From the IMG/VR virus record IMGVR_UViG_3300024358_000010: a stretch of 64,000 nucleotides of DNA, one strand, 5' to 3'. Under the pieces are notes generated by a model that saw only the letters and a program-made list of their open reading frames with translations, was not told the origin of the DNA and did no database searches. Positions 27,197 to 57,967 of this stretch are shown here, piece by piece (the stretch's first letter is position 1; each line of letters opens with the position of its first letter). The translations under genes were made by a program, and so were the position numbers. This stretch comes from a virus.

Positions 27197-29371
27197 TTAG
27201 GCAGTTTGGCTAGCGCGTTGCAGGGTGATATCGTTCAGTACGAAGTCAATACCTTCAACAAGCTTAATTGTCACAGAGATGTAGATCGTGTTACCCTCGA
27301 TCCTGACGCTTAGGTTTTTAAAGCCCTGCGGAGCATCAGCGGTACTCACCGTCACGCCTTGCGCAAGGAACGTAGCGAGCACGGACTCAGCAGTTCCTTT
27401 AACCTCGTTAGCGATAAGCGTGTTTTTAACGCCGATGTAACGAAGTTCCATTGTGTTGCGGAAGTTGTACGCAACAATATCAGCGGCGTATAGCACGTTA
27501 GCGCGGTTGTACACCCAGTTGTCGTCGATGCCGTAGGTCGTATTGTCGACTACTACTCGGAAACCACCAGTTCTCGGTGCTTCCAGGAAGGTGACGCCGG
27601 ACTGAATAGCGTCATCGTACTGCGTATCTGGATCGAAGTCAACCACGATGTCTGCTTCTGGCGTGTTCATGGATTGAGCAGTCTGGCGGATACCAGAGCA
27701 GTTCATAAACTTAAAAGTAAGCGGGAGACCGATTGGTGCGCCGCCGCGAGCGCCAGCCATCAAGCAGGATAGTGCCCAGGGCTGGAACCACTTGATAACG
27801 CCTTGAGTGTTAGTCTGGCGGATATCTTGGATAACCATTTGGACTCGAGCATCTGCCATGTTGCCGATCTTATCTTTACAGTCGCTGTAAGAAGCCTTGA
27901 CAGACAAATATCCTTGGCGCTCACTCTTCTTCTTGGTGGTTTTCATCAAGCTCAGGTGGGTCTTAACCGCTTGATGAATGCCGTCGATAGTGTACGTGGA
28001 ACCAGCATCAGTTAGACCATCAGCGATATCGGCGGTTGCGTTTCGTGAGAAAAGCGGCACGACAGAGTTGACGTGGAACTTCTCAAACTTAGATAGCGCG
28101 TTGACGACGTCGGTGGTTAAAGTTGCACCCTTAGAACCGCCGGCTAAGAGCGTCTCCGTTAGAGCTGCTGGCAAACCTTTTGAAGCTGCGTTTACCAGTT
28201 CTGCGACGTTGGATTGCTCAAACAGATCTTGAACCTCCATGGCGTCTTTTTTAAGACGTGCCGGTTTTCCACCAGTAGAGCTAAACGCGCCAACAGCTGA
28301 CACCTGATCAAGAGCATCAAGGCCTAATTGGTTGTAAACTGGACTAGTTACGCTTGCACTCCACCCAGGATACAGAGAGATAGATTCTGCTAATTGCTTA
28401 ATAGTTACGAAGGCAGCTTTATCAAACGTGTTGGATCCTGTTGAGTCAGTTAGAACAACTTGAGTTGCGGTAACAGCAACCGACGCGGAACTTGCACCAC
28501 CAGTTGAGTCGCGACCGATCTCAAGGATCACATGACCGCCAACGGTATCTTCTTCAGCGATAAGGTCGCGTTTTTGGTTGATCGTGATGGTGCAGCTAGG
28601 CTCGGATGAAGCCGAATAAAGACCAGCAGTCAAACCAAGCTTAGCGAGATCGCCAGGGGTTGAATCTACTAGTTCAAAAGAACGCCCCCATCCTTCTTGA
28701 TACTGCGAAGGTGCAGCATCCATCTGGAGTTTAACTGCCGAGCCGGCAGCAGAAGCAGTTACGCCAGCAGGTAAAATGGTATTTAGCTCATCCACTAGAT
28801 CGCCAAGAGTGCCATGATCAAGTGCAGTGGAGCTTAAAGTTATTACTGCAGCAGCGCCGCCATTCGTTCTGATTGAGAACGAAGCGTCGTCGAGCGCCAC
28901 GCCAAATGCAGCAGGTGCAATACCAGTTTTAGCCGGCGCAGTCTCAGCGGCAGCCAAAACTTTCAAAGAAACCTGATTGCCACCGACGCCCCACTCTCTT
29001 GCGCGGGCGGTGCCGTACGAGCCAGCTAGAGCTAAACTAGCACGCGAGGACGCGTTGGTTTTATAAACCCAAACTGTCTGGGCGCCATTTGCAATCGCGC
29101 CGTCAGATGCAGGAGCAAACAAAAAGTTAAGAGCATCCACGATTGGGCCAGACCGATATTTGTTGCGGGCTTCAATAAGGCGATCTGCCGTAAAGAAGTT
29201 GTCTGCGATATTGGTTTCAGCAGAGCCTGGAGCGCCAGCATCCGCTTCGCCAAAGATTGCAACCAGACCAGCAGGCCCAAGCGGCACGTTACCAGAAAGA
29301 TCGATAGTTGTTTTTGAGTACGCGCCGGGCTTGTAGATCGTAGCACCGTTGAATGATACGCTGATTGCCAT
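27197..29371 (-). CDS. Tail sheath protein
   Basis: N-terminal FNGATIYKPGAYS, GEADAG, WGVGGNQVS and C-terminal VVVDNTTY..; 724 aa, upstream of the tube genes. Confidence 0.9.
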   Translation of the reverse strand: MAISVSFNGATIYKPGAYSKTTIDLSGNVPLGPAGLVAIFGEADAGAPGSAETNIADNFFTADRLIEARNKYRSGPIVDALNFLFAPASDGAIANGAQTVWVYKTNASSRASLALAGSYGTARAREWGVGGNQVSLKVLAAAETAPAKTGIAPAAFGVALDDASFSIRTNGGAAAVITLSSTALDHGTLGDLVDELNTILPAGVTASAAGSAVKLQMDAAPSQYQEGWGRSFELVDSTPGDLAKLGLTAGLYSASSEPSCTITINQKRDLIAEEDTVGGHVILEIGRDSTGGASSASVAVTATQVVLTDSTGSNTFDKAAFVTIKQLAESISLYPGWSASVTSPVYNQLGLDALDQVSAVGAFSSTGGKPARLKKDAMEVQDLFEQSNVAELVNAASKGLPAALTETLLAGGSKGATLTTDVVNALSKFEKFHVNSVVPLFSRNATADIADGLTDAGSTYTIDGIHQAVKTHLSLMKTTKKKSERQGYLSVKASYSDCKDKIGNMADARVQMVIQDIRQTNTQGVIKWFQPWALSCLMAGARGGAPIGLPLTFKFMNCSGIRQTAQSMNTPEADIVVDFDPDTQYDDAIQSGVTFLEAPRTGGFRVVVDNTTYGIDDNWVYNRANVLYAADIVAYNFRNTMELRYIGVKNTLIANEVKGTAESVLATFLAQGVTVSTADAPQGFKNLSVRIEGNTIYISVTIKLVEGIDFVLNDITLQRASQTA

Positions 29372-35234: not shown

Positions 35235-35411
35235 ATGGACTCGGCATATCTGGAGAATTACCTCAAGCGCGAGGGTCTCAGCGTGTGGCGGCTGCGCAGG
35301 CTGATACTGACCGTGAGGGTGCTGCGCCTTGCATCGTTCGATCCCGCGAACGGCGGACTAGCAGACATGGAAGCCTCGTTCAGCAGGAGGTGGGCAGATG
35401 CGCACGCATGA
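35235..35411 (+). CDS. Microprotein (58 aa)
   Basis: Own translation MDSAYLENYLKREGLSVWRLRRLILTVRVLRLAS...; GGAGG upstream. Confidence 0.55.
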   Translation: MDSAYLENYLKREGLSVWRLRRLILTVRVLRLASFDPANGGLADMEASFSRRWADAHA

Positions 35412-35514
35412 TTTTTGGCGCTTGGATAGCTTTTTAGATGTTGCCCTGAAGATGAGGATGCTGAGCAAGAGGTCGGCCGCTTTGGTAGCGTATGGCTTTG
35501 CGGATGTACTTTAG
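35398..35514 (+). CDS. Microprotein (38 aa)
   Basis: MRTHDFWRLDSFLDVALKMRMLSKR...; AGGAGG RBS. Confidence 0.5.
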   Translation: MRTHDFWRLDSFLDVALKMRMLSKRSAALVAYGFADVL

Positions 35515-35552
35515 CCGCTGAGAGCATGCAACAAGGGACCCTACTTTTATTA

Positions 35553-35581
35553 GGGAGGGTAGCGGGTGGGTATGGGCCGGG
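35553..35581 (+). other. Six GGG tracts, potential G-quadruplex
   Basis: GGGAGGGTAGCGGGTGGGTATGGGCCGGG in non-coding DNA. Confidence 0.5.
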
Positions 35582-35685
35582 CCTTTAATCGGGTGGTTCC
35601 ACCTTTATAGAGTATTTGCGCTGCGGGGACCCCATTTTCCGAGGGATTCCTTAGTGTTCTGGAGGCTAGCGGGTATTTCCGAGTC

Positions 35686-35808
35686 TATTATTAAATATAA
35701 TTAATTAAATAATTAAAATTAATTAATTATTAAATTTAATTAAAATTAATTATATAAATCTGAAACTATTAATATATATAATTAAATAATAATAAATATT
35801 ATTATATA
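35686..35808. other. Almost pure A/T tract containing two tandem promoter-like motifs
   Basis: About 120 bp with only a few G/C bases; CCGA/CTGA-N13-TATAAT at 35679 and 35760. Confidence 0.8.
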
Positions 35809-35845
35809 GAGACTGGTGCCAATCAACACTATTGGGAGGTGTACT

Positions 35846-36217
35846 ATGGACAAGTTTGCCAGCCAACAAGCAGCCTTGCGTGCAGCCCTGACAATTGTGC
35901 TTGGATCCGAGCCTGTCAAGGGCCAACTGGTCATCACCGACGAGCAGCGTGCCGCCGTGGGACAATTGATGATGCAGTGGTTGAGGGAGGAGCGCTGGAC
36001 GATCAAGGAGGGTACGCGCGCCGCGGCCGAACCTATGATGTACATAACTGGTCGCAGGCCGACCGACCTGATCCAAGCCTGGGTGAACCCCAGGAAGAAG
36101 GAGAAGAGTGAGGAGGTTGGTGGTGACAAGCTCGCCCTCATCAAGCAGGCAGTTGACGCTGGGCTGATGAGCAAGGAGCAGGCGCAAGAGCTGATCATGA
36201 AGTTCCTGGCTGCGTGA
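35846..36217 (+). CDS. Early protein, divergent member of the SQ-x-x-A paralogue family
   Basis: GGGAGGT RBS; SQQAAL...YITG..LIQAW aligns loosely with 37714, 41518 and 57968. Confidence 0.75.
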   Translation: MDKFASQQAALRAALTIVLGSEPVKGQLVITDEQRAAVGQLMMQWLREERWTIKEGTRAAAEPMMYITGRRPTDLIQAWVNPRKKEKSEEVGGDKLALIKQAVDAGLMSKEQAQELIMKFLAA

Positions 36218-36220
36218 TCT

Positions 36221-36232
36221 GTAGCAGTGTCG
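36221..36232. repeat. 12-bp motif GTAGCAGTGTCG / CGACACTGCTAC (copy 1 of 5)
   Basis: Exact copies at 36221 and 37054 (one orientation) and 39344, 41360 and 51558 (reverse orientation). Confidence 0.85.
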
Positions 36233-36287
36233 GGCGGGACTCACGGATCCGAGTCCCCTAGAGGCAACCCGAAACTAGGAGGTAGCT

Positions 36288-36356
36288 ATGATCATTGAGA
36301 TAGCGCTGACGATAGCGACGATCATCGTGTGCAACCTGCTGCTCCGCGCAGCGTAA
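36288..36356 (+). CDS. 22-aa hydrophobic peptide
   Basis: MIIEIALTIATIIVCNLLLRAA with AGGAGGT RBS. Confidence 0.6.
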   Translation: MIIEIALTIATIIVCNLLLRAA

Positions 36357-36370
36357 CCAGGAGGTCCGAT

Positions 36371-36595
36371 ATGAGAGTGCAGTTCAAGTCAAGGCACGAG
36401 GCAACCATCTCCTTCACGGCCGAGTCGTTCGAGAAGCTGATGTCTAAGCAGTTCGACGAGCTCGAGTGCGTGATGGTCGACGAGCGGGTGATCGTGATCA
36501 CGAGGTCGCAGCTCGTGTTCCTGTGGGCTAAGACGCGCGACTGGCGCAAGGTGCCGCACTCCAGCACTATGGTGAAGATACTGAAAGTAGCGTAG
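36371..36595 (+). CDS. Hypothetical early protein
   Basis: AGGAGG RBS before MRVQFKSR. Confidence 0.7.
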   Translation: MRVQFKSRHEATISFTAESFEKLMSKQFDELECVMVDERVIVITRSQLVFLWAKTRDWRKVPHSSTMVKILKVA

Positions 36596-36650
36596 CTGTT
36601 ATGGGCTCACGGATGAGCCCCTAGAGGCAACCCGAAACTAGGAGGTTATT

Positions 36651-37025
36651 ATGAGCAGCAACAACGACATCATCCAAGTGATCATGAACGACCTCAACGC
36701 CCACCCGCAGCGCGGCCGCATCGACGTGATGGACCCGCTGGCGGATGAAATGGGCCTCGACAGCGTTCTGCCCGGCGACGTCGTGATCGCGCCCGACTTC
36801 GATGACGATGAGCTGTGTGCCGCCGGCGACACCGACGGCGTGAACGAGCTGGCCGAATGGTACAACGGCACGCTGTACATCCAGATCGACCGGGTGATGA
36901 ACTCGCTCGGGTACGAGATGATCCACGAGAACGACGGCAGCGGCGGCGGACTCTACTACGGCATAGTCCAGTACCGCAAGCGGTTTCTGACCGACACCAC
37001 GACCCGGCTGCGCATCGTCAAGTAA
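36651..37025 (+). CDS. Acidic early protein ending in LRIVK
   Basis: AGGAGGT RBS; cassette position. Confidence 0.75.
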   Translation: MSSNNDIIQVIMNDLNAHPQRGRIDVMDPLADEMGLDSVLPGDVVIAPDFDDDELCAAGDTDGVNELAEWYNGTLYIQIDRVMNSLGYEMIHENDGSGGGLYYGIVQYRKRFLTDTTTRLRIVK

Positions 37026-37117
37026 TCTTTGTGGGCTCACGGATGAGCCTTCTGTAGCAGTGTCGCCCGCATTCGCCATCCCCGAAACTATTATCAAGTA
37101 TAATAAGGAGATGCAAC

Positions 37118-37387
37118 ATGAGCAACCAAAACCTTATCACCCAGATCAAGCAGTTCTTGGACTCAAACGACTCAGCACCTGGCGCTCGCTGCTTTGTGCT
37201 GCAGCACATCCGCGATGTGCCTGATACTGAGTTCAGTGCGATCTATGAAGAGTCTGAGGGTGTCAATGACACAGAGCGCAACGCGCTGATCGATTCCATG
37301 ACTGATGCGCAATTGCTGGAGCTGTCTGCGAGCTTGCTCGAGATCGCCAGCGAGAAGATCCTGTATCTTGAAGACTCTGTACGGTAA
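37118..37387 (+). CDS. Hypothetical early protein
   Basis: AAGGAG RBS after the promoter motif. Confidence 0.75.
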   Translation: MSNQNLITQIKQFLDSNDSAPGARCFVLQHIRDVPDTEFSAIYEESEGVNDTERNALIDSMTDAQLLELSASLLEIASEKILYLEDSVR

Positions 37388-37410
37388 CCAACTCAACTAA
37401 GGAGGTCAAC

Positions 37411-37611
37411 ATGTACGCCTTGAATGTCCGCTCTCCTGACTATGAGACTGCTATCGGGTTCGGGCCCACATGCGACGGTGTTGTCAAGATTATGCTGGTC
37501 GACGTGATGAGCGTCCGCGATCAAGTCTACTTCTACATCGCTGAGGATCTACTTGCCAACCTCGCTGAGGGTGAGATCTTGCCGCCAAACAGTCTACTGA
37601 CTATCTGCTGA
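37411..37611 (+). CDS. Hypothetical early protein
   Basis: AAGGAGGT RBS. Confidence 0.7.
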   Translation: MYALNVRSPDYETAIGFGPTCDGVVKIMLVDVMSVRDQVYFYIAEDLLANLAEGEILPPNSLLTIC

Positions 37612-37713
37612 TTATCTCGGGCTCACGGATGAGCCCAACTATCTCCGAAATTAACATTAAATATAAATGATGACGATCAAGTTAATCAACCAACCAAATA
37701 TCAGGAGAACAAC

Positions 37714-38220
37714 ATGAGCAAGCTATCACAACACGCCGCAGTCGTCCAAGTCACCCAAGCCCACTTCGGTGAGCGCTTCATCCCCGGCTCCGACATCAAA
37801 GAGATCGCGACCAAGTCCGACAAGCAAGTCATCGCCACCAAGATCGCCGAGATGATGCTCGAAGGTGCGGTCGAGCTGAGCGATGGCGCCCGAGCCAAGT
37901 ACGGCGAGTCCGCCGAGACCCTAACGAGCAAGTACGTGGTCGGCATGGTCACCAACTGGTTCAACAAGTCCAAGGAGCTTAACGGTGGCGTCAAGTACGA
38001 AGCCAAGAATCCTGGCTCGCGGTTCGGTGCCGGTGATGCGCAGCTGAAAGAGCTCAACCTCCTCCGCAAGCAGCTCGTCGAGATCGGCAACGAAGACGGC
38101 GTCGCGCGGTGTGACGAAGCCATCGCGCAGCGCAAAGAGTTCCTGCGCGAACAGAACCAGCCGAAAGTTGAGATCAACGCAGACAACCTCCCAGCTAACC
38201 TTCGCGATCTAGTCGGTTAA
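37714..38220 (+). CDS. Early protein, paralogue family (NWFNK..LNGG.KYEAKNPGSR)
   Basis: C-terminal half nearly identical to 41518-42033; AGGAG RBS. Confidence 0.85.
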   Translation: MSKLSQHAAVVQVTQAHFGERFIPGSDIKEIATKSDKQVIATKIAEMMLEGAVELSDGARAKYGESAETLTSKYVVGMVTNWFNKSKELNGGVKYEAKNPGSRFGAGDAQLKELNLLRKQLVEIGNEDGVARCDEAIAQRKEFLREQNQPKVEINADNLPANLRDLVG

Positions 38221-38318
38221 TCAGCAGCGCGGATGAGCTCACGGACGAGCTCATCCTTCGCTTCTTCTGATCTTATTAATTAATATGATCAACAACTAAC
38301 TACGAAAGCGAGATCAAC

Positions 38319-38576
38319 ATGAGCAACGCACAGCACATCTTAGACAACTGTGATCTTCTCGTTAAAGCTGACTGCAAGATCGTTGATGACGTTGTGTACG
38401 AGCGCTGTAAGTTTGTTGACCCTCTGTTTACAAAGTCTGAGTTCGTAAATACTGATACTGAGACATACTATCTGAACGACGATGATCACGTGTATCGCTT
38501 CTTCATCACTGACGACGACTACGACTATGTGACTGACGCTGAGACTGTAAGCAAGCTCAACGATCTCTTCAAGTGA
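38319..38576 (+). CDS. Hypothetical acidic early protein
   Basis: ORF filling the space between two hairpins. Confidence 0.7.
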   Translation: MSNAQHILDNCDLLVKADCKIVDDVVYERCKFVDPLFTKSEFVNTDTETYYLNDDDHVYRFFITDDDYDYVTDAETVSKLNDLFK

Positions 38577-38642
38577 TCTGATCGCGAGCTCGAAGATGAG
38601 CTCGCTTCTCTTCTCAAACCCAGCAACCACTCAGGAGACGCT

Positions 38643-38804
38643 ATGAAAATCAATGATCGAGTGTCTACTCCAGAAGGTGATGGTGTTGTTGTTAGTTTAT
38701 CCATAGACAATGATATGTTTGAGAGCGAAGAAGGACCCAACATCTGTGTTCAACTAGATTCTGGGGATGTGCTTTACTTTTATAGCGATGAGTTAACTAC
38801 TTAA
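38643..38804 (+). CDS. Small SH3/KOW-like protein (53 aa)
   Basis: Own translation MKINDRVSTPEGDGVVVSL...ICVQLDSGDVLYFYSDEL; AGGAG RBS. Confidence 0.65.
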   Translation: MKINDRVSTPEGDGVVVSLSIDNDMFESEEGPNICVQLDSGDVLYFYSDELTT

Positions 38805-38835
38805 GCTTAGACTCACAACCGCTCAGGAGGTCAGC

Positions 38836-39111
38836 ATGTTTACGAGTGAAGATCTTGGTGGTCACGTCATTAAAGTTGATACTGTACTCCGCTATGATGA
38901 CAGCGACCGATCCCATATCCTCGTGCTGTCTGATACTGACTCTGATGGTCTAGTCCACATCTACTACGGACCAAGTCTGGCAGATGCGCTGCAAGAAATA
39001 TCTGAGCTGGTTGACTCCTCTGAGATGGCAACCTTAAGCAACCAGCTCAATACGTACCTGAGTGAGTATCACTCCAGCTTCTTAGCTCAACAACAAAGGA
39101 GGTCAACATGA
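38836..39111 (+). CDS. Hypothetical early protein
   Basis: AGGAGGT RBS. Confidence 0.7.
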   Translation: MFTSEDLGGHVIKVDTVLRYDDSDRSHILVLSDTDSDGLVHIYYGPSLADALQEISELVDSSEMATLSNQLNTYLSEYHSSFLAQQQRRST

Positions 39112-39317
39112 TAACCAAGCGAGACATAGTGCGGATGGCGATGGTGTCGGCTGACAGCATGACAACCAACGTGTATGATCTTGACTACTACCGAGCGCGG
39201 ATCAAGTTCGTCGACGACTACCAGCCAAGCAAACCAACCACCAAGTTCAAGACCGACCGCGAGCGAGTTAAAGAGTTGCAGAAGAAGAATAACAACTACA
39301 AAGATATCCGCAGTTAA
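39108..39317 (+). CDS. Hypothetical early protein
   Basis: AGGAGGT RBS; ATGA overlap with the upstream gene. Confidence 0.7.
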   Translation: MITKRDIVRMAMVSADSMTTNVYDLDYYRARIKFVDDYQPSKPTTKFKTDRERVKELQKKNNNYKDIRS

Positions 39318-39422
39318 CCGTCTGGTGCAGCCTCAAGCTGCACCGACACTGCTACGCCCAAGCCCGCCACAGCGCGCCGGTTGTTTCCGAAACTATTAAT
39401 TAATATAATTAAGGAGGTCAAA

Positions 39423-39590
39423 ATGAAAGTTATACTGTCGAACAGTGACGATAGTCTAGGGATCGGTAAAATCCTAGTCTTTGAAGAAAACGACGTGTCG
39501 ATATCGATCTCCTCAGAAGAGGAGTGGTGTGTAGTCGATCACTCCGATAATGATCGTTGTTACTACGGGTACGATCTGGTTAAACTCTAA
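39423..39590 (+). CDS. Hypothetical early protein
   Basis: AAGGAGGT RBS before MKVILS. Confidence 0.65.
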   Translation: MKVILSNSDDSLGIGKILVFEENDVSISISSEEEWCVVDHSDNDRCYYGYDLVKL

Positions 39591-39666
39591 AGTAAATTGG
39601 GGTCATGGATGACCCCACTTGAGTTTCCGAAACCAATCTTACATGTGAATAACTCAGGAGGTCAAA

Positions 39667-39936
39667 ATGATAGCAAATGTCAAACTTGAAGGCACTATCA
39701 ACCGCATCGTTACTCTTGCTGGACACCGCTTTGAAGCGTTTGATGAGTCATTCCGCTTCGCAGATGGCCCTAACTGCGACGAGTACGTAGCCGACCATGA
39801 TCTCAAACTAGCCGAACAATTAGACTCACTGTGTGAATTGTTTGCTGTCACCGATAACCAAGACGTCAGCTATGATGTTGACCTTGCAACAAAACAGATC
39901 TCCAACCTTAAAGTTGAATTAGTTGATCTCGACTAG
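39667..39936 (+). CDS. Hypothetical early protein
   Basis: AGGAGGT RBS. Confidence 0.7.
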   Translation: MIANVKLEGTINRIVTLAGHRFEAFDESFRFADGPNCDEYVADHDLKLAEQLDSLCELFAVTDNQDVSYDVDLATKQISNLKVELVDLD

Positions 39937-40015
39937 ACCTTCGGAGGGCGCTCGGGACTCACGGATGAGTCCCACTACCTCCGAATCAATTAGAGGGTAT
40001 AAATAGGAGGTCAAC

Positions 40016-40598
40016 ATGGACAATGCGCAGCTCAAGTCTCTCGAAGAGATCCTGACTTATCTCAACTCGATCGACATAGCTGAAGATCCAGACACTTTCG
40101 AGTATTTATCTGGCATACGCGACCAAGCCAGCCGTATCATGCGCGACACTATACAGTGGGTCGAAAGGGGATCACTATGAAAGTGGTATTCACCGACGAC
40201 GAGCTGATGCTGATGGCCGACCTCGTCGAGGATGCGCTGACTCGAGAGCCGAACCGAGACGATCTCAAGCAGCTGATGTCGCGGCTCGCTTACTTAACCA
40301 CCACCAAGTGGGAGGTCTAGCATGGATATTAACCAGGAGAAAGTGCTGCTGCTCAACGGCATCGCACACCTCAAATACGAGCTCATGCTGACTCGCGGTC
40401 CAAGAAGTATCGACATCCTCGAAAGGCTTGAGACGCTGCGTAATTGCCTCGAGATCTTGATCAGCAAAGAACTTCGAATCTTTTCCAAGGAGATCTAATA
40501 TGAAAGCGTTGACTAGCGCCGAACTCAAGAGGATCTACAAGGGTAAGCGTCCCAAGTCAGCCTGGGAAGTTCTTCTAACCCCGCCAAAGAAAGGATAG
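40016..40598 (+). other. Run of four coupled small ORFs (40016-40180, 40177-40320, 40322-40498, 40500-40598)
   Basis: Own translations MDNAQLKS.., MKVVFTDD.., MDINQEKV.., MKALTSAE..; each has a GGAG/GGGG RBS and abutting start and stop. Confidence 0.65.
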
Positions 40599-40728
40599 CG
40601 TGATGCTTGCTATGCAGATCATCAAAGCCACCGCTGTAGCAGCGACCATGCTGCTGATCGTCGCCGCGGTGAACATCGCTGTAAAGATCATCCGAATCAA
40701 TAAGTAAGTATAATAAACAGGAGGTTAT

Positions 40729-40965
40729 ATGGCTTACTCATCCATCCACAACGTCGATACTTCACTCAAATATGTCGTCCGCCTCGACGGCGAAGTGATC
40801 CGCAGGGATGTTCAACCGCACCACGTCAACTCGATCGTCTACTCGCTCGAGTCCGAAGGTATCAGCATCAGTGACGAGATCTGGAACGACGACGAGATGG
40901 CGGTTGATCTCATGACCACCACAGTCTTCGACGACTTCGAAACTGACGACGACTACATCGACTAA
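40729..40965 (+). CDS. Hypothetical acidic early protein
   Basis: Promoter motif and AGGAGGT RBS. Confidence 0.7.
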   Translation: MAYSSIHNVDTSLKYVVRLDGEVIRRDVQPHHVNSIVYSLESEGISISDEIWNDDEMAVDLMTTTVFDDFETDDDYID

Positions 40966-40974
40966 GGAGCGACC

Positions 40975-41289
40975 ATGAGATACTTAGCTATCGCGCTGCT
41001 GCTCGGCGGCTGCGCCACGACCAAAGACGCAGACCAGCTCAGAACAGAGTTGACCACGACCCGGCTCCGCCTGGACGAGACGCGCTACCACGTTCAGATT
41101 GAATCCTGCCGAACCACCGCGCTCGTTTGTGGCCTTGTGACTAAGAACGAGGAGAAGTGTATCGATTCTTTCTCCGACTGCGTGACCTCGGCTATTGAAG
41201 GTTTCCGCATCCGATACGGCAAAGAACCCTCCGACCTCTTTGACAAGCTTGAAGTAGTAGACAAACTCGACCCCAAGCGTGCTCGCTAG
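40975..41289 (+). CDS. Putative lipoprotein
   Basis: MRYLAIALLLGG-C lipobox-like signal; AAGGAG RBS. Confidence 0.65.
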   Translation: MRYLAIALLLGGCATTKDADQLRTELTTTRLRLDETRYHVQIESCRTTALVCGLVTKNEEKCIDSFSDCVTSAIEGFRIRYGKEPSDLFDKLEVVDKLDPKRAR

Positions 41290-41517
41290 GGCGACCTCCT
41301 GATAAACCTCGGGGATCTACTCGGTCCCCGGGGTACTTCCCAACACAGCCGGGCCTCGCCGACACTGCTACGCCCACAGCCCACGCCCGACTATTTCCGA
41401 ATCTATCATTGAGTATAAGATGATGATGAAATTAAAATAATTGCTGCTGAGTTTATCCGATCCTATCTTTAACCATCGGGCAAATGTTATTGCCCAGCAA
41501 ACCAAGGAGTGTTATCC

Positions 41518-42033
41518 ATGGCTATGAAGCAACGTGAAGCAGTCTACCAAGTCACCACCGAAGTCCTCGCCGCCAAAGGCATCGAGTTCATGCCCACCGT
41601 CACCGACGTGCGCGACCTCGTCAACTCCGAGATCCGCTCGGAGATCACCGACAAGATCGTGACCATGTTCCAAGAAGGTCAAGTGGAGTTCAAGTCTACC
41701 GAGTCCAACCAGGAGAAGATGTCCGACACCAAGAAGCTCCGCAGCTACGTCACCGGCCTCATCACCAACTGGTTCAACAAGGATACGCAGCTCAACGGCG
41801 GCGCCAAGTACGAAGCCAAAAACCCCGGTTCCCGCTCACCCGACGCCCAGCTGAAAGAGCTCCGCATCCTCAAGAAGCACCTCGAAGCCAAAGGTGACGC
41901 TGACGGTGTCAGCCGCTGCGACGAAGCGATCGCCCAGCGGATCGAGTTCCTCAAGGCAGAGAAAGCTCCAACTTCCCTCCCAGCCGTAGACCCAGACAAC
42001 CTCCCCGACTTCCTGAAGGACCTGGCTGTCTAA
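41518..42033 (+). CDS. Early protein, paralogue family
   Basis: QREAVYQ...YVTGLITNWFNKDTQLNGGAKYEAKNPGSR; AAGGAG RBS. Confidence 0.85.
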   Translation: MAMKQREAVYQVTTEVLAAKGIEFMPTVTDVRDLVNSEIRSEITDKIVTMFQEGQVEFKSTESNQEKMSDTKKLRSYVTGLITNWFNKDTQLNGGAKYEAKNPGSRSPDAQLKELRILKKHLEAKGDADGVSRCDEAIAQRIEFLKAEKAPTSLPAVDPDNLPDFLKDLAV

Positions 42034-42041
42034 TCCTCCTA

Positions 42042-42068
42042 GGGAGGGAGACTAAACCTCTCCCTCCC
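42042..42068 (+). terminator. Hairpin closing the cassette region (possible terminator or processing site)
   Basis: GGGAGGGAGA-ctaaacc-TCTCCCTCCC; no clear U tract. Confidence 0.45.
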
Positions 42069-42082
42069 CTCCTTCTAAGGAT

Positions 42083-42626
42083 ATGAACCTTATGGCCGCG
42101 AAGCTATACCGCAAAGAACTAGTGCACAGAACTAAGTTCAACAAGATATACTCCATAAGGCCGGTGCAGAAGGTCCGCAAGTTCATCATGGCGCTCCATT
42201 TCTTAAATCTCGGTATAGATATCTCGCTGAACGCACCTAGAGTAAAAGTCGTCGACCAGAGACCCCGACCATGAAACCTGACCTATACGAAAAAGAAGCA
42301 GTCGGCCACAGTCGGACAGAAACGGTATACATGGTTAAACCCGTGCCCAAAGCTATACTGTTCATGCGAGTCCTACACCGTATTCGGGTAGAAAAGCAGA
42401 AAGCTTTCTGCAAGCTTGACTACGTGGAACGGAAGGATAGGTCGTGATGCGCAACCGCACCCCAAAGCCCCTATTCTCCAGGGAGAAGCTGCACAGCGGT
42501 CCCAGCAACCTGATCTACGTCGTCTCCCCAGTAGAGGAAGCCAGGAAGTTCCTGCTTACCCTCCACCTACTCTCCGTAGAGAGGAAGAACTTCTGGTCCA
42601 AGGTGGACTACCTGAAGAAGGGATAG
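42083..42626 (+). other. Three tandem paralogous ~60-aa ORFs (42083-42274, 42271-42447, 42444-42626)
   Basis: Shared L[YF].[KR]E...[IV]Y...PV.....F...LH.[LI]; the middle copy was translated by hand. Confidence 0.75.
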
Positions 42627-43893
42627 AGAGATGGACTTTGCCGACCACTACTACTCTTCAGACTCACTCTATATCTGCAAGAAGTTTATGGATCTACTCC
42701 AGGGCCTTAAGCTAGCTAAGCAAGAACCCTTCCCCTAGGAGAAGAGATGGACGACCGAACCGATCTGCTCAAGAAGAAGCTTGAGGAGATAAATGACCTG
42801 GCGCACCTGAAGATGATCTTCTTCACGCTGGCCCGCCTAGGTTTGGACATAGTGAAATATTAAGTGTTCCACTTAGTGGAAGTTGTTGGTTGGTGGGCGT
42901 CGCCACACCCCTCCCCTTTCCACTACACAACCATCGGCACCTTCTAAACCTAGAAGATACTACTTGCCCCAAAGACAGGGTGGAAAGCTTGACTACTTTT
43001 CCATTGCGATACTCTTCCCGGCTAGGAAAGCTGAGAAGTCTCTCTTTACCTATCCCATAAAAGGATGTTTATATGTCTGCTAGATGCTATGACGAGAACT
43101 GCATGGTTCACTTCTTAGAACTTGAAAGTTCTTTTGCCCACGTCTCTCCCCAGTTTGGTAACGTGAGGTGCTTGTGCTCCATCTCCGATAAGGAGACTTG
43201 GAGAGCCGCCCTTGCTGCTACGCTTGCGTATCGCTACCGCTTTCTTGAGGACATATAACAAGAGTTTGTTGCTTAGACCGTTATTTGGTAGAAGCCTAAC
43301 ATCCCAGGAGTATTGCTATGAACTATCAGCTCCAAATGGTTGAGCTTATTAAGGCCATTGCTCTTCTTTGCCAGACTGAGCTTGGAACAGAGTCGCCAGG
43401 GAGAGTGCTTGAAACCAGAAGGTTGTCTTGCATGTCCTACTATCTAACCTGCAGCTGTGATACCTCGCCTTCCGGCAACTTGACGTGCAACCCTAATATG
43501 TTTGAGAGGTTGACTGGTTGTATCTTGGAAAGAGCCCCGGTTAAGAGTAGGTGAAAGTATGGATGACCCTATTTCTAGTGAGGCTGAGAAATCTTTTGTT
43601 AAGGTGACTGGTCTTTTATGTAAAGTGAAGCTGGTTGACACAGAGACCTGGGTGGATCTGGTCGTAGATTTCCGATCCGAGGAATACGCACGTTCGTAAG
43701 CTTACTCAAACAGTAAACAAGGAGATTAAAGTGATCTTCGACATCCTCAACGTTATCGGCATTGTCATCACTGTAGTTCTTTTGTTTGGAGCTGTGAGCT
43801 TGTACCGCACCGTTCGCTCCTGGTTCCAACCCAAAGACTAGATCTCTTTACCTAAAGAGTGACGGAGGGTGAGCTTGTTTCTAATACTGTGAG

Positions 43894-44232
43894 GTGGGGT
43901 GCTTTGTGCAAATAAAAAGAGCTTACTGCGACATACTCTTAGATGGGTCAGATAGACCATACGTCGCCCTTCCTGAAGGTAATTTCATAGCAATATCAGT
44001 GCCGGATGGCGTTAGCTCTGGGTGGTTCACCTACCACCCCGAAGACCAGTTCGCCTACTACGAGTTTGATCCGTATCCACGTGACAAAGATCACTTTAGA
44101 TATCTTAGGTACCGAGCTTTCATGGGTTTAGGCTATACGCTTAAATTTTTGCACTTAATTAGCATAGGTGAGGCAGTTAGCTTGACCGGTGGCGTGTTTG
44201 ACGCGGTAGAAGAAAAAGATCTTAAAAAGTGA
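43894..44232 (+). CDS. Hypothetical protein
   Basis: Plus-strand ORF in the gene run; start uncertain. Confidence 0.5.
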   Translation: MGCFVQIKRAYCDILLDGSDRPYVALPEGNFIAISVPDGVSSGWFTYHPEDQFAYYEFDPYPRDKDHFRYLRYRAFMGLGYTLKFLHLISIGEAVSLTGGVFDAVEEKDLKK

Positions 44233-44620
44233 GTTGTTCTATCTATTTTCAGATAGTCTTCCAAGAAGGTATTTGGACTATGAGCCGGGGCTGATGTCTG
44301 ACCGAACGGGCTATGTCTTCACGGGCTGCCGCATCTACCGCAAAGAGATCCTCGGTAAAGATGAGGCGTTCGCCTTTGTTTCGACTAGCGATCTCAAGAA
44401 GATATTGCGGAAAAGATTGGGTCACAAGGCTAACCAGTGCCAAAAGTAGGTCGATAGGTTGGGAGAGTACGGTGAGTATAGGTTCAGAACTAGCCCGCAT
44501 CAAGAAGATAGATCCGGACTACTACCGGTACGTGTGGCTGGCGATAGCCCTCGGTCTTGGCACTTATAAGAAGTTAAGGCTGATGAGGCATAAACTTAAG
44601 TAGGAACTTTGGGAGGGCTT

Positions 44621-44968
44621 ATGCACTATCACGCGCACGTTTACTGGTCCAGCGAGGGTGAGCGGGAAACCGCACTCTCGCTCAGAAAAGACTTAGAAGA
44701 TCTCGGTCTTAGCTTGGGCCGAGTCTGGGATGTCGAGGTAGGACCGCACCCGCTCCCGATGTACCAGGTGAACTACTCCGACTCGGACGCTTATGTAGTG
44801 GAGGAGTTGCTGTCGTCTTCGGGGCTTAGTGTTTTACTCCATGAGGACACGGGCGACGACCTGCGTGATCATACCGAAGGTGCCCGGTGGCTGGGTAAGC
44901 CGCTGGATCTAGACCTGGAATGGCTGCGCGCCTACGCCGAGATGAAGCTGGACAATAAGGAAGTTTAA
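44621..44968 (+). CDS. DOPA 4,5-dioxygenase family protein
   Basis: YHAHVY, VGPHPLPMYQV, LSVLLH, DHTEGARWLGKPLDL are the family motifs; GGAGG RBS. Confidence 0.85.
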   Translation: MHYHAHVYWSSEGERETALSLRKDLEDLGLSLGRVWDVEVGPHPLPMYQVNYSDSDAYVVEELLSSSGLSVLLHEDTGDDLRDHTEGARWLGKPLDLDLEWLRAYAEMKLDNKEV

Positions 44969-45809
44969 GCGTTGAAAACCTTAATAATCAAAACTTTAAC
45001 CGCCTGGGTGGTCGTAAACTGCGGTGACGGCTCTGCCAAGAGCGGTGCTGAAGTTGATTCCGCGTCGGACCACGTGGTGGTGATCTGTGTTCCGCCTGAT
45101 GGCGCCAACTCTTATTTGAGGGTCGCTCGCCTAGGCGGTGAGATGTGCCCCAAGAACCACGTTGCTCTTGACTGGTGCAGTCTAGCAAAATAATCAAGCA
45201 AGTATAATCCCTTAGCTTTCAAGGGGGAATACGATGTACATCCAGATATACGCTTGGTTTATATTGATTACTTGGCTGGGTTTGGCTTATTACTTCCACG
45301 GCAAAGAAGTCCCAGAGGACATGCGGGTCATCGACTTCCGCCGGACATTCACCTCGATCCTAGCTCATCTGCCGATTTTTGGCCGCGTGTTTGGTTGGTG
45401 GTGATCAATGGATGAGCGCTCCGTCAGGATATGGCAGCTCGCCCACACGCAAGATGCGCTTGAGATCCAGCGTTGTAACTCGCTGATATGGCGACTGCTG
45501 ATCACAGTTATCCGCCTGAAGATGGTGGCAGAATGAGGAAGTACGTCGCCTGCAAAGCATTACCAGTTTACGAGTGCGCCATGCTTTTTGGTGGCCGAAA
45601 CGGTTTTCAGAGGGCCAACCGCGCGTTGTGGATGCTGGTTCTCACAGCGACAAGATTAAAGATCCTGCCGCAAGGCGAGCCGTTAAGATGGCCGTAGCGA
45701 ATCCTTTTGGCCATTTTAATGAACAATCCATGTCTTACCGCGAATATCTTGCCCGCGGTAAGATGCGTGTTTCCGATCATATAATTCCTTACGAATTAGG
45801 AGGTTGCAC

Positions 45810-46397
45810 ATGAACATGGAAAGCTACGAAGAATACAAAGAAGTTAGACAGAAAATAAAAGCGCTTCTCGCTGAAAAAGAAGAGTGGCTTTCTGAGCATT
45901 GGCTTGAAGCTCATGAAGACCTGGTGCGGGATCAGTTCGCGGAGGAATTGAGTTCGCAGCCCGATGACGCGGTTAATCGACTGATATCCGAGCTAGACGA
46001 TGCTCACAGAAAACTATTCCATTATCTTTCTGGTAAAGAAATCGTAAACTTACTGAGATCTAAGATAACTGACGAGCAGATCGCAGATGTTCTCATCGAC
46101 GCTGGCGAGATCTATGAACGAAAACCAACTTCCTACTTGTCTATTGCTTGTTTTGCACGCTCCGACTTTGAAGCAGATGTCTTTATTGACGATCATAAAG
46201 ACTTAGCCGATCTCGTTGATCTGCTTCCCGACGATAGCATTTTCAAGAAAGATATGTTCACAGTTAACGTAGACATTGGTCCGTTTTATTTCTGTGTCAA
46301 AGCAGACGCTTTTCTTAAAGAAGTTGAACACTTAATAAATAATGCTCTAGCAGAAGGTTACATCAAAGAATTGCTTGAGATTGGCTCAGATGCGTAA
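45810..46397 (+). CDS. Hypothetical acidic protein
   Basis: Promoter-like motif and AGGAGGT RBS. Confidence 0.7.
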   Translation: MNMESYEEYKEVRQKIKALLAEKEEWLSEHWLEAHEDLVRDQFAEELSSQPDDAVNRLISELDDAHRKLFHYLSGKEIVNLLRSKITDEQIADVLIDAGEIYERKPTSYLSIACFARSDFEADVFIDDHKDLADLVDLLPDDSIFKKDMFTVNVDIGPFYFCVKADAFLKEVEHLINNALAEGYIKELLEIGSDA

Positions 46398-46670
46398 CGG
46401 CCAAGATCCATTAGTGCCAAGAAGGTTTCTCAAATCTTTGGAAAGACTCAGGGTGTTCTCGGTCCCATTGGGTAGATTAATCTGGTTAAAGGCCGGTTTT
46501 AACGACTTAAAAAGTCCTTGGAGCGATAACTTCGTCGACGATTGGACATAATTTGGAAAACGAATTTCGCATATTAAATATCGCTGAGACCATGAAAGAT
46601 CTTCGTATAATATCCCCAGAATATTTCTGGGAAATTTGGCATTATCTAGCTCTGAGGATTGCAAGGGATT

Positions 46671-47033
46671 ATGACTCAAAACCATGAACGACGAGTTATG
46701 ATGTACAGTGCTGCCGCCATCTTCTTTGTGTTCGCGATGTACTTGACGTTCTCTTTTTCTTTTATAAAGCCAAAGACTACGGTTCAGGTTTACAAGGGTG
46801 ACGTGGTTAAGTTTGGGTGGACGCCAGACAATGTCTTCTACAGCAAGACGTGCACCGACTACGGCACAGCGATCGACCAGTACGGAGGAGCGGACCACCC
46901 CGCTTATAAGGTGATGATCGTCTGTACCTCAAAGAACAAAGTGGAATTTATTCCAATACTTATCCAACCTGAAAATGTTGTGTCCTCTTCGCGGGAACCG
47001 CTCCCAACGCCGATAGATGACTTAGTAGAATGA
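46671..47033 (+). CDS. Membrane-anchored small beta protein, paralogue of 47319
   Basis: N-terminal hydrophobic helix, then F.W....F...C...G....YG......Y.V...C. Confidence 0.6.
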   Translation: MTQNHERRVMMYSAAAIFFVFAMYLTFSFSFIKPKTTVQVYKGDVVKFGWTPDNVFYSKTCTDYGTAIDQYGGADHPAYKVMIVCTSKNKVEFIPILIQPENVVSSSREPLPTPIDDLVE

Positions 47034-47318
47034 GGTACGGAGTAAAGTCAATACTGATTGACAGTGTGATCAAAGGTACTTATTCCGAGCGATCTACGGT
47101 TGGCGGATTTGCTTGGATACTTTTAAAGTTAAACTTATCTAGATACCCCATCGTAACTCGCTGGATGAACAGGGAGTTTTACAACAACAGATGATAAAGA
47201 GTAAACCGAATCCTGAAACAGCGTGGAAACTCCTCTTGGCCGCTAAGAGGCTGAAAATATATAGTCTTTCCGATAGAAAAGCCATGGCGTGGGCAATATC
47301 ACTTTACGAGTCTTTAGC

Positions 47319-47675
47319 ATGAAAAAGTACATATCAATCATATTGGCGGCATTCTTTCTGGTAGGCGCCGGACATGTCCCTACAAATAAGAAGTATTTTA
47401 AAAAGCCGTCTTTCTCAAGAAAAAGACCAAAGAACATACCAATCAGAAAACCTAAACTATATAAAACACATAAACTAATTTACTTTACGTGGCCTATGGG
47501 TCTCGAAATGTTTGGGGCGGAATGTCCCAACAAAGGTTTTGTGCAGGAAGTTTACGGTCAACCACCTAATCTCCTTTACGAGGTGCGGGTAGAGTGCAAA
47601 GGTGACATCGAAAAGTACGAACACTTCTTTCTAATTCATCAGTCGCAGATAATCAAGATCATAAAGCGCGGATGA
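47319..47675 (+). CDS. Signal-peptide protein, paralogue of 46671
   Basis: MKKYISIILAAFFLVGA; same Cys/Gly/Tyr pattern. Confidence 0.6.
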   Translation: MKKYISIILAAFFLVGAGHVPTNKKYFKKPSFSRKRPKNIPIRKPKLYKTHKLIYFTWPMGLEMFGAECPNKGFVQEVYGQPPNLLYEVRVECKGDIEKYEHFFLIHQSQIIKIIKRG

Positions 47676-47816
47676 CAGAAACCGCACTAGATTTAATTTA
47701 GTGCGCAATGGCAATTTACCCCATAGCAAATGATTTGCTCTTAGTTTAAAGACTGATTCTGCGATTCTGAATTTATTTCCGATCATATTATGATCCATAA
47801 CACAGACGGAGGTTTT

Positions 47817-48254
47817 ATGTCGAGTTCGTCAATGGGGTTCTCGATGCCGAGATTAGTAAAAGCAAACCTTCAACTGATACTTGGAGATAAATATGACTCA
47901 TTTCTGTACGGGAGCATCCTCGCCTTCAAGGAAGCTTTGGCGGTTAAAATTAATAAAATTCGCATCGATAAACCTAATGATAAGTATTACACAACATTCA
48001 GCAAATCGTATAAAATACCAAACACAAACCTGAAACTTAAGTTTCAATCAACTATCTCTTTCAGAGATTATTCTAAGTTCTCAGGGCATGCTTCGTCTAA
48101 TCGGCAGGAAGAATATTGGTTTGATCCCAAGGCGACCCATGTTAAAGTCACAATACCGGCTTTTCAAGGAACAGACCACTACGGCTTCAATGATGTGCTT
48201 AACGAAGCTATCGCACACGCTTTCGATAAAGAAATACTGGGAGTAGGCAAATGA
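47817..48254 (+). CDS. Hypothetical protein
   Basis: Promoter-like motif and GGAGGT RBS. Confidence 0.7.
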   Translation: MSSSSMGFSMPRLVKANLQLILGDKYDSFLYGSILAFKEALAVKINKIRIDKPNDKYYTTFSKSYKIPNTNLKLKFQSTISFRDYSKFSGHASSNRQEEYWFDPKATHVKVTIPAFQGTDHYGFNDVLNEAIAHAFDKEILGVGK

Positions 48255-48324
48255 TACCGTTCGCTTTATTCTTTTTGTGCGTGATGTTTGGTGTTTACGT
48301 AATATTCGTACCATGAGGCTTACC

Positions 48325-48513
48325 ATGAAACATAGTATCGGCGATACTGTCTCCTACCAAGAATTAACTGGAAAAATCATCAACGTGTTTGATGCTCCAG
48401 CTGGAACTGTGCTTGAGATCGAGTGCCCAGCCAAAGTTGAAGGTGACCTCGACACCATCCTGTGGATACCTGAGGCAGAGCTCTCTGCCCCTAAAAAGGG
48501 GATCACGACATGA
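48325..48513 (+). CDS. Small SH3/KOW-like protein
   Basis: IGDTVSY..LTGKII...WIPEAEL. Confidence 0.55.
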   Translation: MKHSIGDTVSYQELTGKIINVFDAPAGTVLEIECPAKVEGDLDTILWIPEAELSAPKKGITT

Positions 48514-48819
48514 GCTTTAACGGCTTGCTTTTATTACTGTTGCTGGCCGTGCTACTCTCGTTGCCGGGGCTCACAATGGCCGACATTATTTCGCCGTTCA
48601 TGGCCAGCATGATCAGCCTTGGATCTACTTACTTAGTCTTAATATTTTGGCAATCTTAATGAAACACGACTCGGATATATACCAAGAATACTACAAGCAA
48701 ATTCTCGACCAGAAGAAGATGAATTTCTTTATCAGAACACTCACAACCCTCCGTCTCTCGGAGGATGTCCGATCTTATCCTGATTTTAATGATTTTGCCG
48801 TTTCATAATGGGGGTTTAT

Positions 48820-49089
48820 ATGCTTTGCCGTGATTGCGGTTTTGACATGGAAAAACCTAAGAGATGGGGCTATGCCACGCTGTGCGACGCGTGTGACGAA
48901 GCCAGATACGAAGCGAAGCATGTCGGCGTCATGATTGCCGATGGTAAAACTGATTATGGAATTCAACTAGTTAGAAATCCAACCAAAGCTCAGGCCGAGA
49001 AGATCAGGAGTCTAGGGTTGGCGCACGACCCAAGAACTCAGTTGAGATTCACGGGCAAAGGTCAGCATAATGAGCGGGAAGAAAAGTAA
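48820..49089 (+). CDS. C4 zinc-finger protein (DksA/TraR-like finger)
   Basis: CRDCG...KR.....LCDAC. Confidence 0.5.
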   Translation: MLCRDCGFDMEKPKRWGYATLCDACDEARYEAKHVGVMIADGKTDYGIQLVRNPTKAQAEKIRSLGLAHDPRTQLRFTGKGQHNEREEK

Positions 49090-49651
49090 TCTTATTGAAA
49101 CGACAGATCTTAATGTCGCCGACGCCGTGTGCATCGACCTTATGAACGTGGTGTTGTGCGATCTTCGTTTGCTGAGCCGCATATCGTGCGCTCAAATATC
49201 CGAGCGCCTCGACAATATCGTCCTCTTTGAGATTCAGTCTATATGAATGATTTTTACCGACGAGACGCAGAGCATTCAGCTTACTTTTTCGACTCGACCT
49301 ATCGACTGGGTCTTCTGGGTAAAAATGATTACGACAGAGTTTGGCGCGTGACGCGGAACATCATACTTTTCGAGATAGTCACGAGGAACGTTTGAGGTAT
49401 GGGCTAGGTGCCAGTTCGGGTACTTTGCTGAGTAAAATCAAATACAATTTTAGGTTGTTCCATCACAAAATAAATTTAGTGGATTCAACCGGTTATAACT
49501 TTTAACCGTTTATATTTTTCTGCTCAGAAGTGGAAACATAAAAGTCAACGATTTCAACTACTTTAAAATTAAATATTTTGACTCGACATCTGGCCGCTGG
49601 GGGTGTTAAAATAGAAATCAGTGAGTACAACTCTCCCAACCGGAGACACAG

Positions 49652-57958: not shown

Positions 57959-57967
57959 GTGATAAAG

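Follow-up and report, generated by a model that had tools for sequence, protein, structure and literature searches.

Can a set of very small phage genes that carry a similar helix pattern be regarded as one family with one common mode of binding? The question is raised by a 64,000-nucleotide stretch of the virus record IMGVR_UViG_3300024358_000010 (hereafter the window; positions are counted from its first nucleotide), which contains fifteen very small open reading frames (ORFs) between positions 35,235 and 49,395 of the plus strand. A first-pass annotation proposed that these ORFs encode a hidden family of microproteins built on one amphipathic helix, [FWL]-h-x-x-h-x-x-L-[RK]-h (h, hydrophobic; x, any residue), with a common docking role and variable flanks. 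The reading to which our analysis inclines is a different one: the ORFs would encode several fast-evolving, mostly basic helical microprotein families that possess a look-alike main helix and no common docking module. ORFs are designated below by their first position.

Coding status of the fifteen ORFs

The coordinates, start codons and lengths of the fifteen ORFs and all 15 quoted peptide strings are correct on re-reading. The proposed coupling to upstream genes is also borne out: the distance from the previous stop codon to the start lies within −20 to +8 nt in 13 of the 15 ORFs, five of which (42271, 45533, 47030, 47191, and 49243) have an ATGA overlap there. Codon usage and ribosome-binding sites were unconvincing guides to coding status. 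Most listed ORFs score within the lowest 10% of true-gene windows in codon usage, the score does not separate them from open off-frames, and a clear Shine–Dalgarno (SD) sequence is missing in many of them. Coding status was therefore judged from comparative evidence, with the ratio of nonsynonymous to synonymous substitution rates (dN/dS) taking the place of the codon-usage score.

The comparison loci were obtained from profile searches with two groups of ORFs described below, a triplet (42083, 42271, and 42444) and a trio (45408, 45533, and 47191). The searches returned about a dozen small proteins each, and the contigs encoding these proteins supplied the syntenic, divergent loci L002, L008, L009, and L010; a further locus, L001, was taken from IMG/VR. 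Two blocks are nearly identical to the window, with 2 differences from L001 over positions 42034–43635 and 0 differences from L002 over about 43560–49650. These blocks are of no use for substitution analysis, and L008–L010 were used there instead.

Every listed ORF except 42747 has intact orthologs at 55–100% amino acid identity, in up to five relatives. Pairwise dN/dS ranges from 0.02 to 0.55, mostly 0.05–0.3, at synonymous divergences (dS) of 0.3–2, and substitutions show a clear excess at third codon positions. Both dN/dS and the position pattern resemble those of unlisted neighboring genes. The intact orthologs, the low dN/dS, and the third-position excess together identify the 15 ORFs, as far as sequence comparison goes, as genuine protein-coding genes under purifying selection, in line with the proposal that they encode real, diversified microproteins. 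They can hardly be called hidden, since most are already present in public gene calls of related contigs as unnamed products.

It is very improbable that the ORFs are chance frames or non-coding RNA or DNA elements, with the motif a by-product of base composition or of a DNA signal. The low codon-usage scores and the lack of a clear SD sequence in many ORFs would fit such an explanation. So would a family of relatives' genes termed KYSP, whose C-terminal L-R-I-S is encoded by CTGAGGATCAGT, which doubles as the SD sequence of the next gene. However, orthologs of the listed ORFs remain open, and at dS 0.3–2 their dN/dS is well below 1, so the substitutions already contradict this explanation. 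Moreover, different genes encode the motif with different codons, no tRNA genes or Rfam families were detected in the window, and no DNA repeats lie beneath the motifs. The motif lies away from the C terminus in 13 of the 15 ORFs, and embedding of an SD sequence is therefore inapplicable to them.

Two DNA-level candidates were rejected. A repeat behind the motif was not found, and the codons differ between genes; a role of L-[RK]-h as the SD sequence of the next gene holds only for the KYSP C terminus and not for the mid-protein motifs of the window.

Family structure

The proposal of a single family did not survive profile comparison. Hidden Markov model (HMM), hhalign, and iterative searches never unite the groups, which comprise the triplet, the trio, a weak pair (49070 and 49243), and seven singletons with orthologs only (35235, 35398, 42631, 42747, 46390, 47030, and 48659). 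The triplet members are tandem paralogs (blastp 3e-10 and 1e-9; hhalign 7e-13 to 1e-7), and a fourth gene of this type is found in L002 at 10304–10504 (hhalign 1.4e-4). Searched exhaustively with the triplet profile, 1.84 billion representatives yielded 10 clusters. Nine consist of unfused proteins of 55–85 amino acids; the tenth match, to a protein of 784 amino acids, covers a 20-residue repeat and was judged spurious.

Within the trio, iterative HMM searches merge the paralogs 45408 and 45533 (hhalign 4.6e-6), and 47191 is linked to each of them less strongly (1e-3 and 3e-3). A search for fused, longer relatives with annotated domains was negative for the trio, which is weak evidence. The link between 49070 and 49243 is likewise weak and reflects a common C-terminal NI[VI]LFEI (hhalign 5.6e-4).

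Beyond these groups, no relationship was detected. Window-wide HMMs of the triplet and the trio retrieved no other listed ORF, and iterative HMM searches converged without merging families. An all-versus-all hhalign comparison of 47 ortholog profiles (1081 pairs) was significant only inside the triplet, the trio, and the 49070/49243 pair. The match of 42631 to the triplet profile is weak and not significant (hhalign P 3.6e-3). At the family level, the triplet/KYSP (E 0.02), triplet/trio (0.21), and KYSP/trio (0.08) comparisons are all non-significant, and each of the three alignments falls on the motif helix. A BLOSUM seed-neighbor statistic had no power (z < 1).

Blastp and the all-versus-all comparison agree with the earlier remark that flanks are unrelated outside local pairs. 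The absence of a described counterpart also holds: searches of Pfam and PHROGs with all 15 ORFs, and of NCBIfam with 10 of them, gave no match near cut-off. The families are most likely unrelated, or related only beyond detection by sequence profiles. The analysis yields at least 12 previously unnamed microprotein families, supported by their substitution patterns, as well as two clear paralog families and a hypervariable cassette-type array, all of them candidates for toxicity, counter-defense, and interaction screens.

Recurrence of the helix motif

We define the strict motif as the regular expression proposed originally, given above. It is not shared by all 15 ORFs: 7 of them match in the window, and the other eight fit only after one or two positions are relaxed. 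At least one member with the strict motif is present in 10 of the 15 ortholog groups, and none in the groups of 35398, 42444, 42747, 47030, and 49070.

The motif is nevertheless commoner than in controls. It occurs in 7 of 65 plus-strand ORFs of 30–75 amino acids versus 0 of 68 on the minus strand, and the expected number of matches is 0.25 in Markov shuffles of the DNA and 0.45 in residue shuffles (maximum 4 in 2000). Its rate is 1 per 14,226 amino acids in the long proteins of this phage and 1 per 14,977 in phage T4. None of 18 small T4 proteins carries it, a tiny control of 1,075 amino acids.

Because the motif had been derived from the same sequences, all patterns with 6 of 10 positions specified were searched without bias. 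When only the window was searched and paralogs were collapsed, the best-scoring related pattern was h-h-x-T-h-x-x-L-x-h, present in 7 ORFs with a −log10p of 5.9. The shuffled null has a mean of 5.15 and a 90th percentile of 5.9, and the pattern is not significant. The search was extended to 88 family representatives, obtained by calling genes greedily in the window and in five related loci and clustering them at blastp 1e-3. The top pattern, considered further below, scored 7.55 versus a null maximum of 6.85 (40 shuffles). An analogous pattern in 7 of 46 conserved families scored 6.28 versus a maximum of 5.89 (28 shuffles). In its general form the motif was observed 9 times versus 2.0 expected from shuffles, a 4.5-fold excess.

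Every top pattern of the unbiased search is of the amphipathic-helix type. Residue shuffling destroys such patterns along with helical periodicity, and any set of real helical proteins would therefore beat the shuffles. In addition, 45408 and 45533 were still counted as two families. For these two reasons, the true significance of the motif is borderline.

The strict motif also occurs in small plus-strand ORFs of the relatives that lack similarity to the window: 5 of 82 contain it, compared with none of 99 minus-strand ORFs (Fisher p 0.018; shuffles 0.47). After orthologs were collapsed and one off-frame match was dropped, the count fell to 3 (p 0.013 versus shuffles; Fisher 0.087). We conclude that the motif is probably a genuine, moderately over-represented feature of about 8–10 small-gene families of this lineage, not of all 15 ORFs. 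Residue shuffles and the family-level search thus support the part of the original proposal that a helix-like motif recurs beyond composition.

Structural context of the motif

The originally proposed single docking helix within variable flanks finds no support in the alignments. The motif segment is no better conserved than other segments of the same length in the ortholog groups, with a mean conservation percentile of 0.49 (Wilcoxon p 0.52). Its location also varies, from residue 12 of 53 up to the C terminus.

The only confident structural model is the AlphaFold2 (AF2) model of triplet member 42444, with a predicted local distance difference test score (pLDDT) of 84. The model consists of a β-hairpin (residues 10–17 and 22–28) followed by a helix (residues 30–58). 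The motif, residues 33–43, forms the first turns of this sole long helix. L39 is invariant and F34 nearly invariant in the triplet family, and both are motif positions. Because the motif opens the only long helix of a 59-residue protein, we infer that its hydrophobic face contributes to the protein's own core in the predicted structure, rather than serving as a free docking peptide. For 45533, AF2 predicts a single helix at low confidence (pLDDT 68).

Searches of the 42444 model with Foldseek against the PDB, and in the VIA wide and Atlas fold searches, gave no significant structural match; a feature-based search of the ESM Atlas yielded scores of at most 0.76, which is noise.

Ten of the 15 proteins are strongly basic, with an isoelectric point (pI) of at least 9.7. 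The SD-led early genes at 36651–40965 encode proteins that are nearly all strongly acidic (pI 4.1–4.4, net charge −4 to −15). Set beside the microproteins beyond 42 kb, which are mostly basic, these acidic proteins suggest two compositional classes of accessory proteins.

A hypervariable array of small genes

Five of the genes, at 42083–42863, follow a 174-residue gene (41509) in one apparent operon, with a repeated promoter-like unit at 41392. Gene 41509 has two unannotated paralogs of about 170 residues, at 37714–38220 and about 57959–58258 (blastp 1e-38, 3e-17, and 3e-5 among the three), and matches no family in Pfam or PHROGs. In all relatives examined, a counterpart of gene 41509 lies ahead of the array.

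The array is enclosed by conserved flanks. The 5′ flank is composed of a GC-rich hairpin and CTAGAGGAnCATAAGGATATG, after which the genes differ among relatives. The 3′ flank, a conserved non-coding segment, is composed of a hairpin and GGTGGGCGTnGCCACACCCCTCCCC; the GGTGGGCGTCGCCACACCCCTCCCC element within the 3′ flank is kept in L002, L008, and L010 and partly in L009. The array spans 42034–42920 in the window, 9589–10760 in L002, 4571–5310 in L008, 7034–7470 in L009, and 6296–6900 in L010.

The enclosed genes are of the triplet type in the window, L001, and L002, and consist of KYSP members and MDxKPRD mini-genes in L008, L009, and L010. L004 contains both types. KYSP is a 12-member family (FFxFRELAxKYSP ... 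h-h-x-L-R-h-S-[KR]) that occurs in tandem in relatives and is absent from the window. One gene of L004 (4528–4701) is a chimera that joins the N terminus of an MDHKPRD mini-gene to a KYSP body. As conserved flanks enclose differing gene content, comparison of the loci identifies the array as a cassette-type hypervariable locus. Of all the observations, it argues most strongly for an arms-race role and for a narrower form of the docking idea.

Competing explanations

Most of the 15 proteins are Leu-rich as well as basic. In the reading to which we incline, the shared h-x-x-[polar]-h-x-x-L-[RK]-h would be the hydrophobic face of one main helix, of a kind that tiny basic proteins can form. Its recurrence would be amplified by paralogy and by the selection of examples, and it would not be a transferable docking module. 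Each protein may bind a host or phage macromolecule on its own, in host take-over, regulation, or counter-defense, with nucleic acids or acidic proteins as possible partners of the basic members. The helix itself may serve folding or self-association. Four observations weigh against this reading. The motif is about 50-fold commoner than in the long proteins of the phage or in T4. The top de novo pattern among the 88 families is h-x-x-polar-h-x-x-L-R-h, present in 8 families. KYSP members, MDxKPRD mini-genes, and the fourth triplet-like gene, which lack sequence similarity to the window but occupy the same array position in relatives, bear the motif. Finally, the triplet and KYSP profiles are colinear over 37 columns, at the non-significant E of 0.02. 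Pure coincidence accounts for these observations less well than a real superfamily or a shared function would. A possible but doubtful alternative is the original proposal or a narrower form of it, in which the array genes (the triplet, 42631, 42747, and their KYSP and MDxKPRD counterparts), the trio, and some singletons form one rapidly diversifying superfamily, or a convergent set, whose conserved basic helix docks on a common host or phage target while the variable remainder of each protein gives the specific effect. It would account for a motif that emerges as the top family-level pattern (p below about 0.03 versus shuffles) and is replicated in non-homologous array genes of relatives. The consensus sequences of the enlarged triplet also fit the motif (FMRVLHRLRV, FLLTLYRLRI, and LLISLRSLKV). 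The chimera in L004 indicates that array members recombine, and conserved flanks around a content that differs per phage are expected of an arms-race locus. However, the families show no homology at the profile level, conservation of the motif does not exceed that of its flanks, its position and predicted context differ between families, and five listed groups lack it. The null also lacks helical periodicity, and the excess of 9 over 2.0 may be largely generic.

A more specific version we regard as unlikely: a lineage-specific superfamily of basic microproteins, diversified by tandem duplication and cassette exchange in the array (42.04–42.92 kb and its counterparts in relatives) and at dispersed sites, whose helix h-x-x-[S/T]-h-x-x-L-[R/K]-h docks on a single host or phage hub while the remainder tunes the effect, the whole forming a modular counter-host "arsenal". 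Less likely still, the trio, and perhaps 49070, would be minimal helix-turn-helix (HTH) DNA-binding proteins with the motif as recognition helix. The trio proteins are basic, and their alignment (YECAMLFGG...ANRALWMLV) resembles the helix 2/helix 3 layout of an excisionase or MerR-type HTH. Against this, Pfam, PHROGs, and NCBIfam gave no HTH match even at E 0.1, the 45533 model is the single low-confidence helix noted above, and the search for longer relatives with annotated domains was negative. Should the recurrent helix turn out to be a docking element common to the families, this would be a rare instance of many phage effectors drawing on one modular binding motif; otherwise, the locus illustrates how readily tiny basic proteins with amphipathic-helix patterns can be taken for a family.

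Comparison with known systems

The microprotein families are new and unnamed, and their closest analogs are the host-takeover module of phage SPO1 and phage small proteins in general. The SPO1 module comprises 26 small early genes in a 12.4-kb terminal region (PMC6873191). Both loci are clusters of mostly small genes arranged in short operons of a large myovirus, and the tail sheath of the present phage is distantly SPO1/Mx1-like. The region of the window at 35.7–41.4 kb resembles the module further in its repeated, apparently strong promoter unit, AGGAGGT ribosome sites, and terminator hairpins. However, a PHROGs search was empty with respect to similarity to SPO1 proteins, and the listed ORFs mostly lack a strong promoter or SD sequence and rely on start/stop overlap.

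Two elements recur in this region. One, TTTCCGAAACTATTAATTAATATAAT, is about 30 nt long and is placed upstream of AGGAGGT ribosome sites at 35674–41423 (also at 45189 and 47774); the other, the hairpin GGGCTCACGGATGAGCC, follows genes. From their placement, the first is a likely early promoter and the second a likely terminator.

The small proteins of phages form a large reservoir of factors that manipulate the host, most of it unexplored. According to one review, phage proteins of fewer than 100 residues are encoded by over 2 million small genes, many of unknown function (PMC11323111). The present ORFs share the features of this class, being short, conserved, lineage-restricted, and unannotated, and are likely modulators of host or phage processes. 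They differ in that several families have a recognizable helix pattern and in the flank-defined cassette array; such a shared helix motif is not described in the passages of that review that were consulted.

The triplet model also superposes on part of the PadR/MarR-type winged-helix regulators, the wing and C-terminal helix, with template modeling (TM) scores of 0.57–0.73 versus LmrR/PadR in Foldseek and 0.62 in the Atlas. However, the matches are not significant (Foldseek E > 2; VIA Z ≤ 4.0), there is no Pfam match, and the helix-turn-helix part itself is absent from the 59-residue triplet protein.

Genomic setting

The part of the window that holds the 15 ORFs is most likely the accessory (early/middle) plus-strand region of a novel, metagenome-only myovirus of about 140–154 kb. 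Large structural genes occupy the minus strand from 1 to 33.6 kb of the window, including the tail sheath (27197–29371), whose nearest relative is that of Myxococcus phage Mx1 at 31% identity. The plus strand from 34 kb encodes a lysozyme, an HNH endonuclease, dozens of small genes, and PhoH at 49652. No phage matching the window was found in GenBank at the nucleotide level, searches with PhoH and the tail sheath returned only distant matches, and an IMG/VR scan with a 197-residue protein as query gave no match. The related metagenomic contigs are 63–140 kb in size, and the proteins were found on contigs of up to 154 kb. The near-identical blocks shared with L001 and L002 adjoin regions of 76–92% identity, with a sharp breakpoint at the stop codon of the 174-residue gene. 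This mosaic identity indicates, at the sequence level, a recent recombinational exchange of accessory modules.

Features of individual genes

The features are collected in the table below.

Table 1. Small genes and array elements of the window and relatives (aa, amino acids; strict motif as defined in the text)
Feature	Position	Strand	Remarks
58-aa microgene	35235..35411	+	directly after HNH gene; SD-like GGGAGGA upstream; motif LILTVRVLRL mid-protein; orthologs L001, L002, L009, L010 (55–100% aa identity); substitutions by codon position 24, 16, 36; strict motif in 4/4 members
38-aa microgene	35398..35514	+	14-nt overlap with previous gene; AGGAGGT SD; orthologs in 5 loci, dN/dS 0.09–0.55; strict motif in 0/6 members
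174-aa gene, head of array operon	41509..42033	+	repeated unit, likely early promoter, at 41392–41423
GC-rich hairpin (GGGAGGGAGA..TCTCCCTCCC), conserved 5′ flank	42040..42075	+	kept in L002, L008, L009, L010
Triplet member 1, 63 aa	42083..42274	+	pI 11.4; blastp 1e-9, hhalign 1e-7 to member 3; dN/dS 0.34 vs L002; orthologs P0003, P0008, P0012, P0025
Triplet member 2, 58 aa	42271..42447	+	ATGA overlap with member 1; blastp 3e-10, hhalign 7e-13 to member 3; dN/dS 0.20; orthologs bear strict-motif variants FMRVLHRLRV, FMTAFHRLKV, FMEALRLLKV
Triplet member 3, 59–60 aa	42444..42626	+	start GTG 42444 or ATG 42447; dN/dS 0.28
35-aa microgene	42631..42738	+	motif FMDLLQGLKL; orthologs L002, L003, L006, L007, 82% identical, dN/dS 0.16
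38-aa microgene, last in array	42747..42863	+	TAGGAGA SD; C-terminal 15 aa (LFMTLRRLGLDIVKY) alone common to 45-aa gene at same place in L002, L006, L007
3′ flank	42867..42917	+	terminator-like hairpin TTCCACTTAGTGGAA (42867–42881) and conserved GGTGGGCGTCGCCACACCCCTCCCC element
Trio member, 42 aa	45408..45536	+	motif at C-terminus; orthologs 76–95% identical, dN/dS 0.06–0.14
Trio member, 54 aa	45533..45697	+	ATG 45533, public calls begin at ATG 45488; orthologs P0015, P0017, P0019, L008, L010, stops 6–8 codons earlier
53-aa microgene	46390..46551	+	8-nt overlap with end of 197-aa gene; motif FLKSLERLRV; orthologs in L008, L009, dN/dS 0.05–0.16; singleton family
54-aa microgene	47030..47194	+	ATGA overlap at both ends; orthologs 74–94%, dN/dS 0.14–0.20
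Trio member, 43 aa	47191..47322	+	dN/dS 0.04–0.20
49-aa microgene	48659..48808	+	motif FIRTLTTLRL; orthologs 73–94%, dN/dS 0.02–0.17; singleton
58-aa acidic microgene	49070..49246	+	orthologs 61–72%, dN/dS 0.18–0.33; no strict motif
50-aa microgene	49243..49395	+	ATGA-coupled to 49070; orthologs 80–84%, dN/dS 0.19–0.54; strict motif in L008 and L010 orthologs (FFDSIWRLRV), not in window copy
KYSP members	L008 4792-5213, 5701-5850, 7131-7447; L009 7197-7364, 9021-9158; L010 6500-6787; L004 4528-4845

The third trio gene differs in length among relatives. In the region 47143–47322, relatives P0021 and P0022 have a 68-residue form, and the window copy represents only its 43-residue C-terminal part, starting from the ATGA overlap. 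The extra N-terminal VRFVQLSH of P0021 and P0022 matches VRIWQLAH of 45408.

Three further ORFs deserve mention. A basic ORF of 43 residues outside the earlier list (44472–44603, pI 10.2) has a similar tail, ...YKKLRLMRHKLK, and is kept in L008 and L009 with dN/dS 0.22–0.25. An alternative-frame ORF at 45574–45813 (public call about 45628–45813) overlaps the end of 45533–45697 and is called in L002 and L009. Its substitutions are flat over codon positions (10, 11, and 10) with dN/dS 0.53, and its coding status is therefore doubtful. The third, at 44621–44968, encodes a 115-residue product whose L002 ortholog has a precomputed match to PF08883, DOPA 4,5-dioxygenase. This putative DOPA 4,5-dioxygenase-like gene is an unusual phage auxiliary gene.

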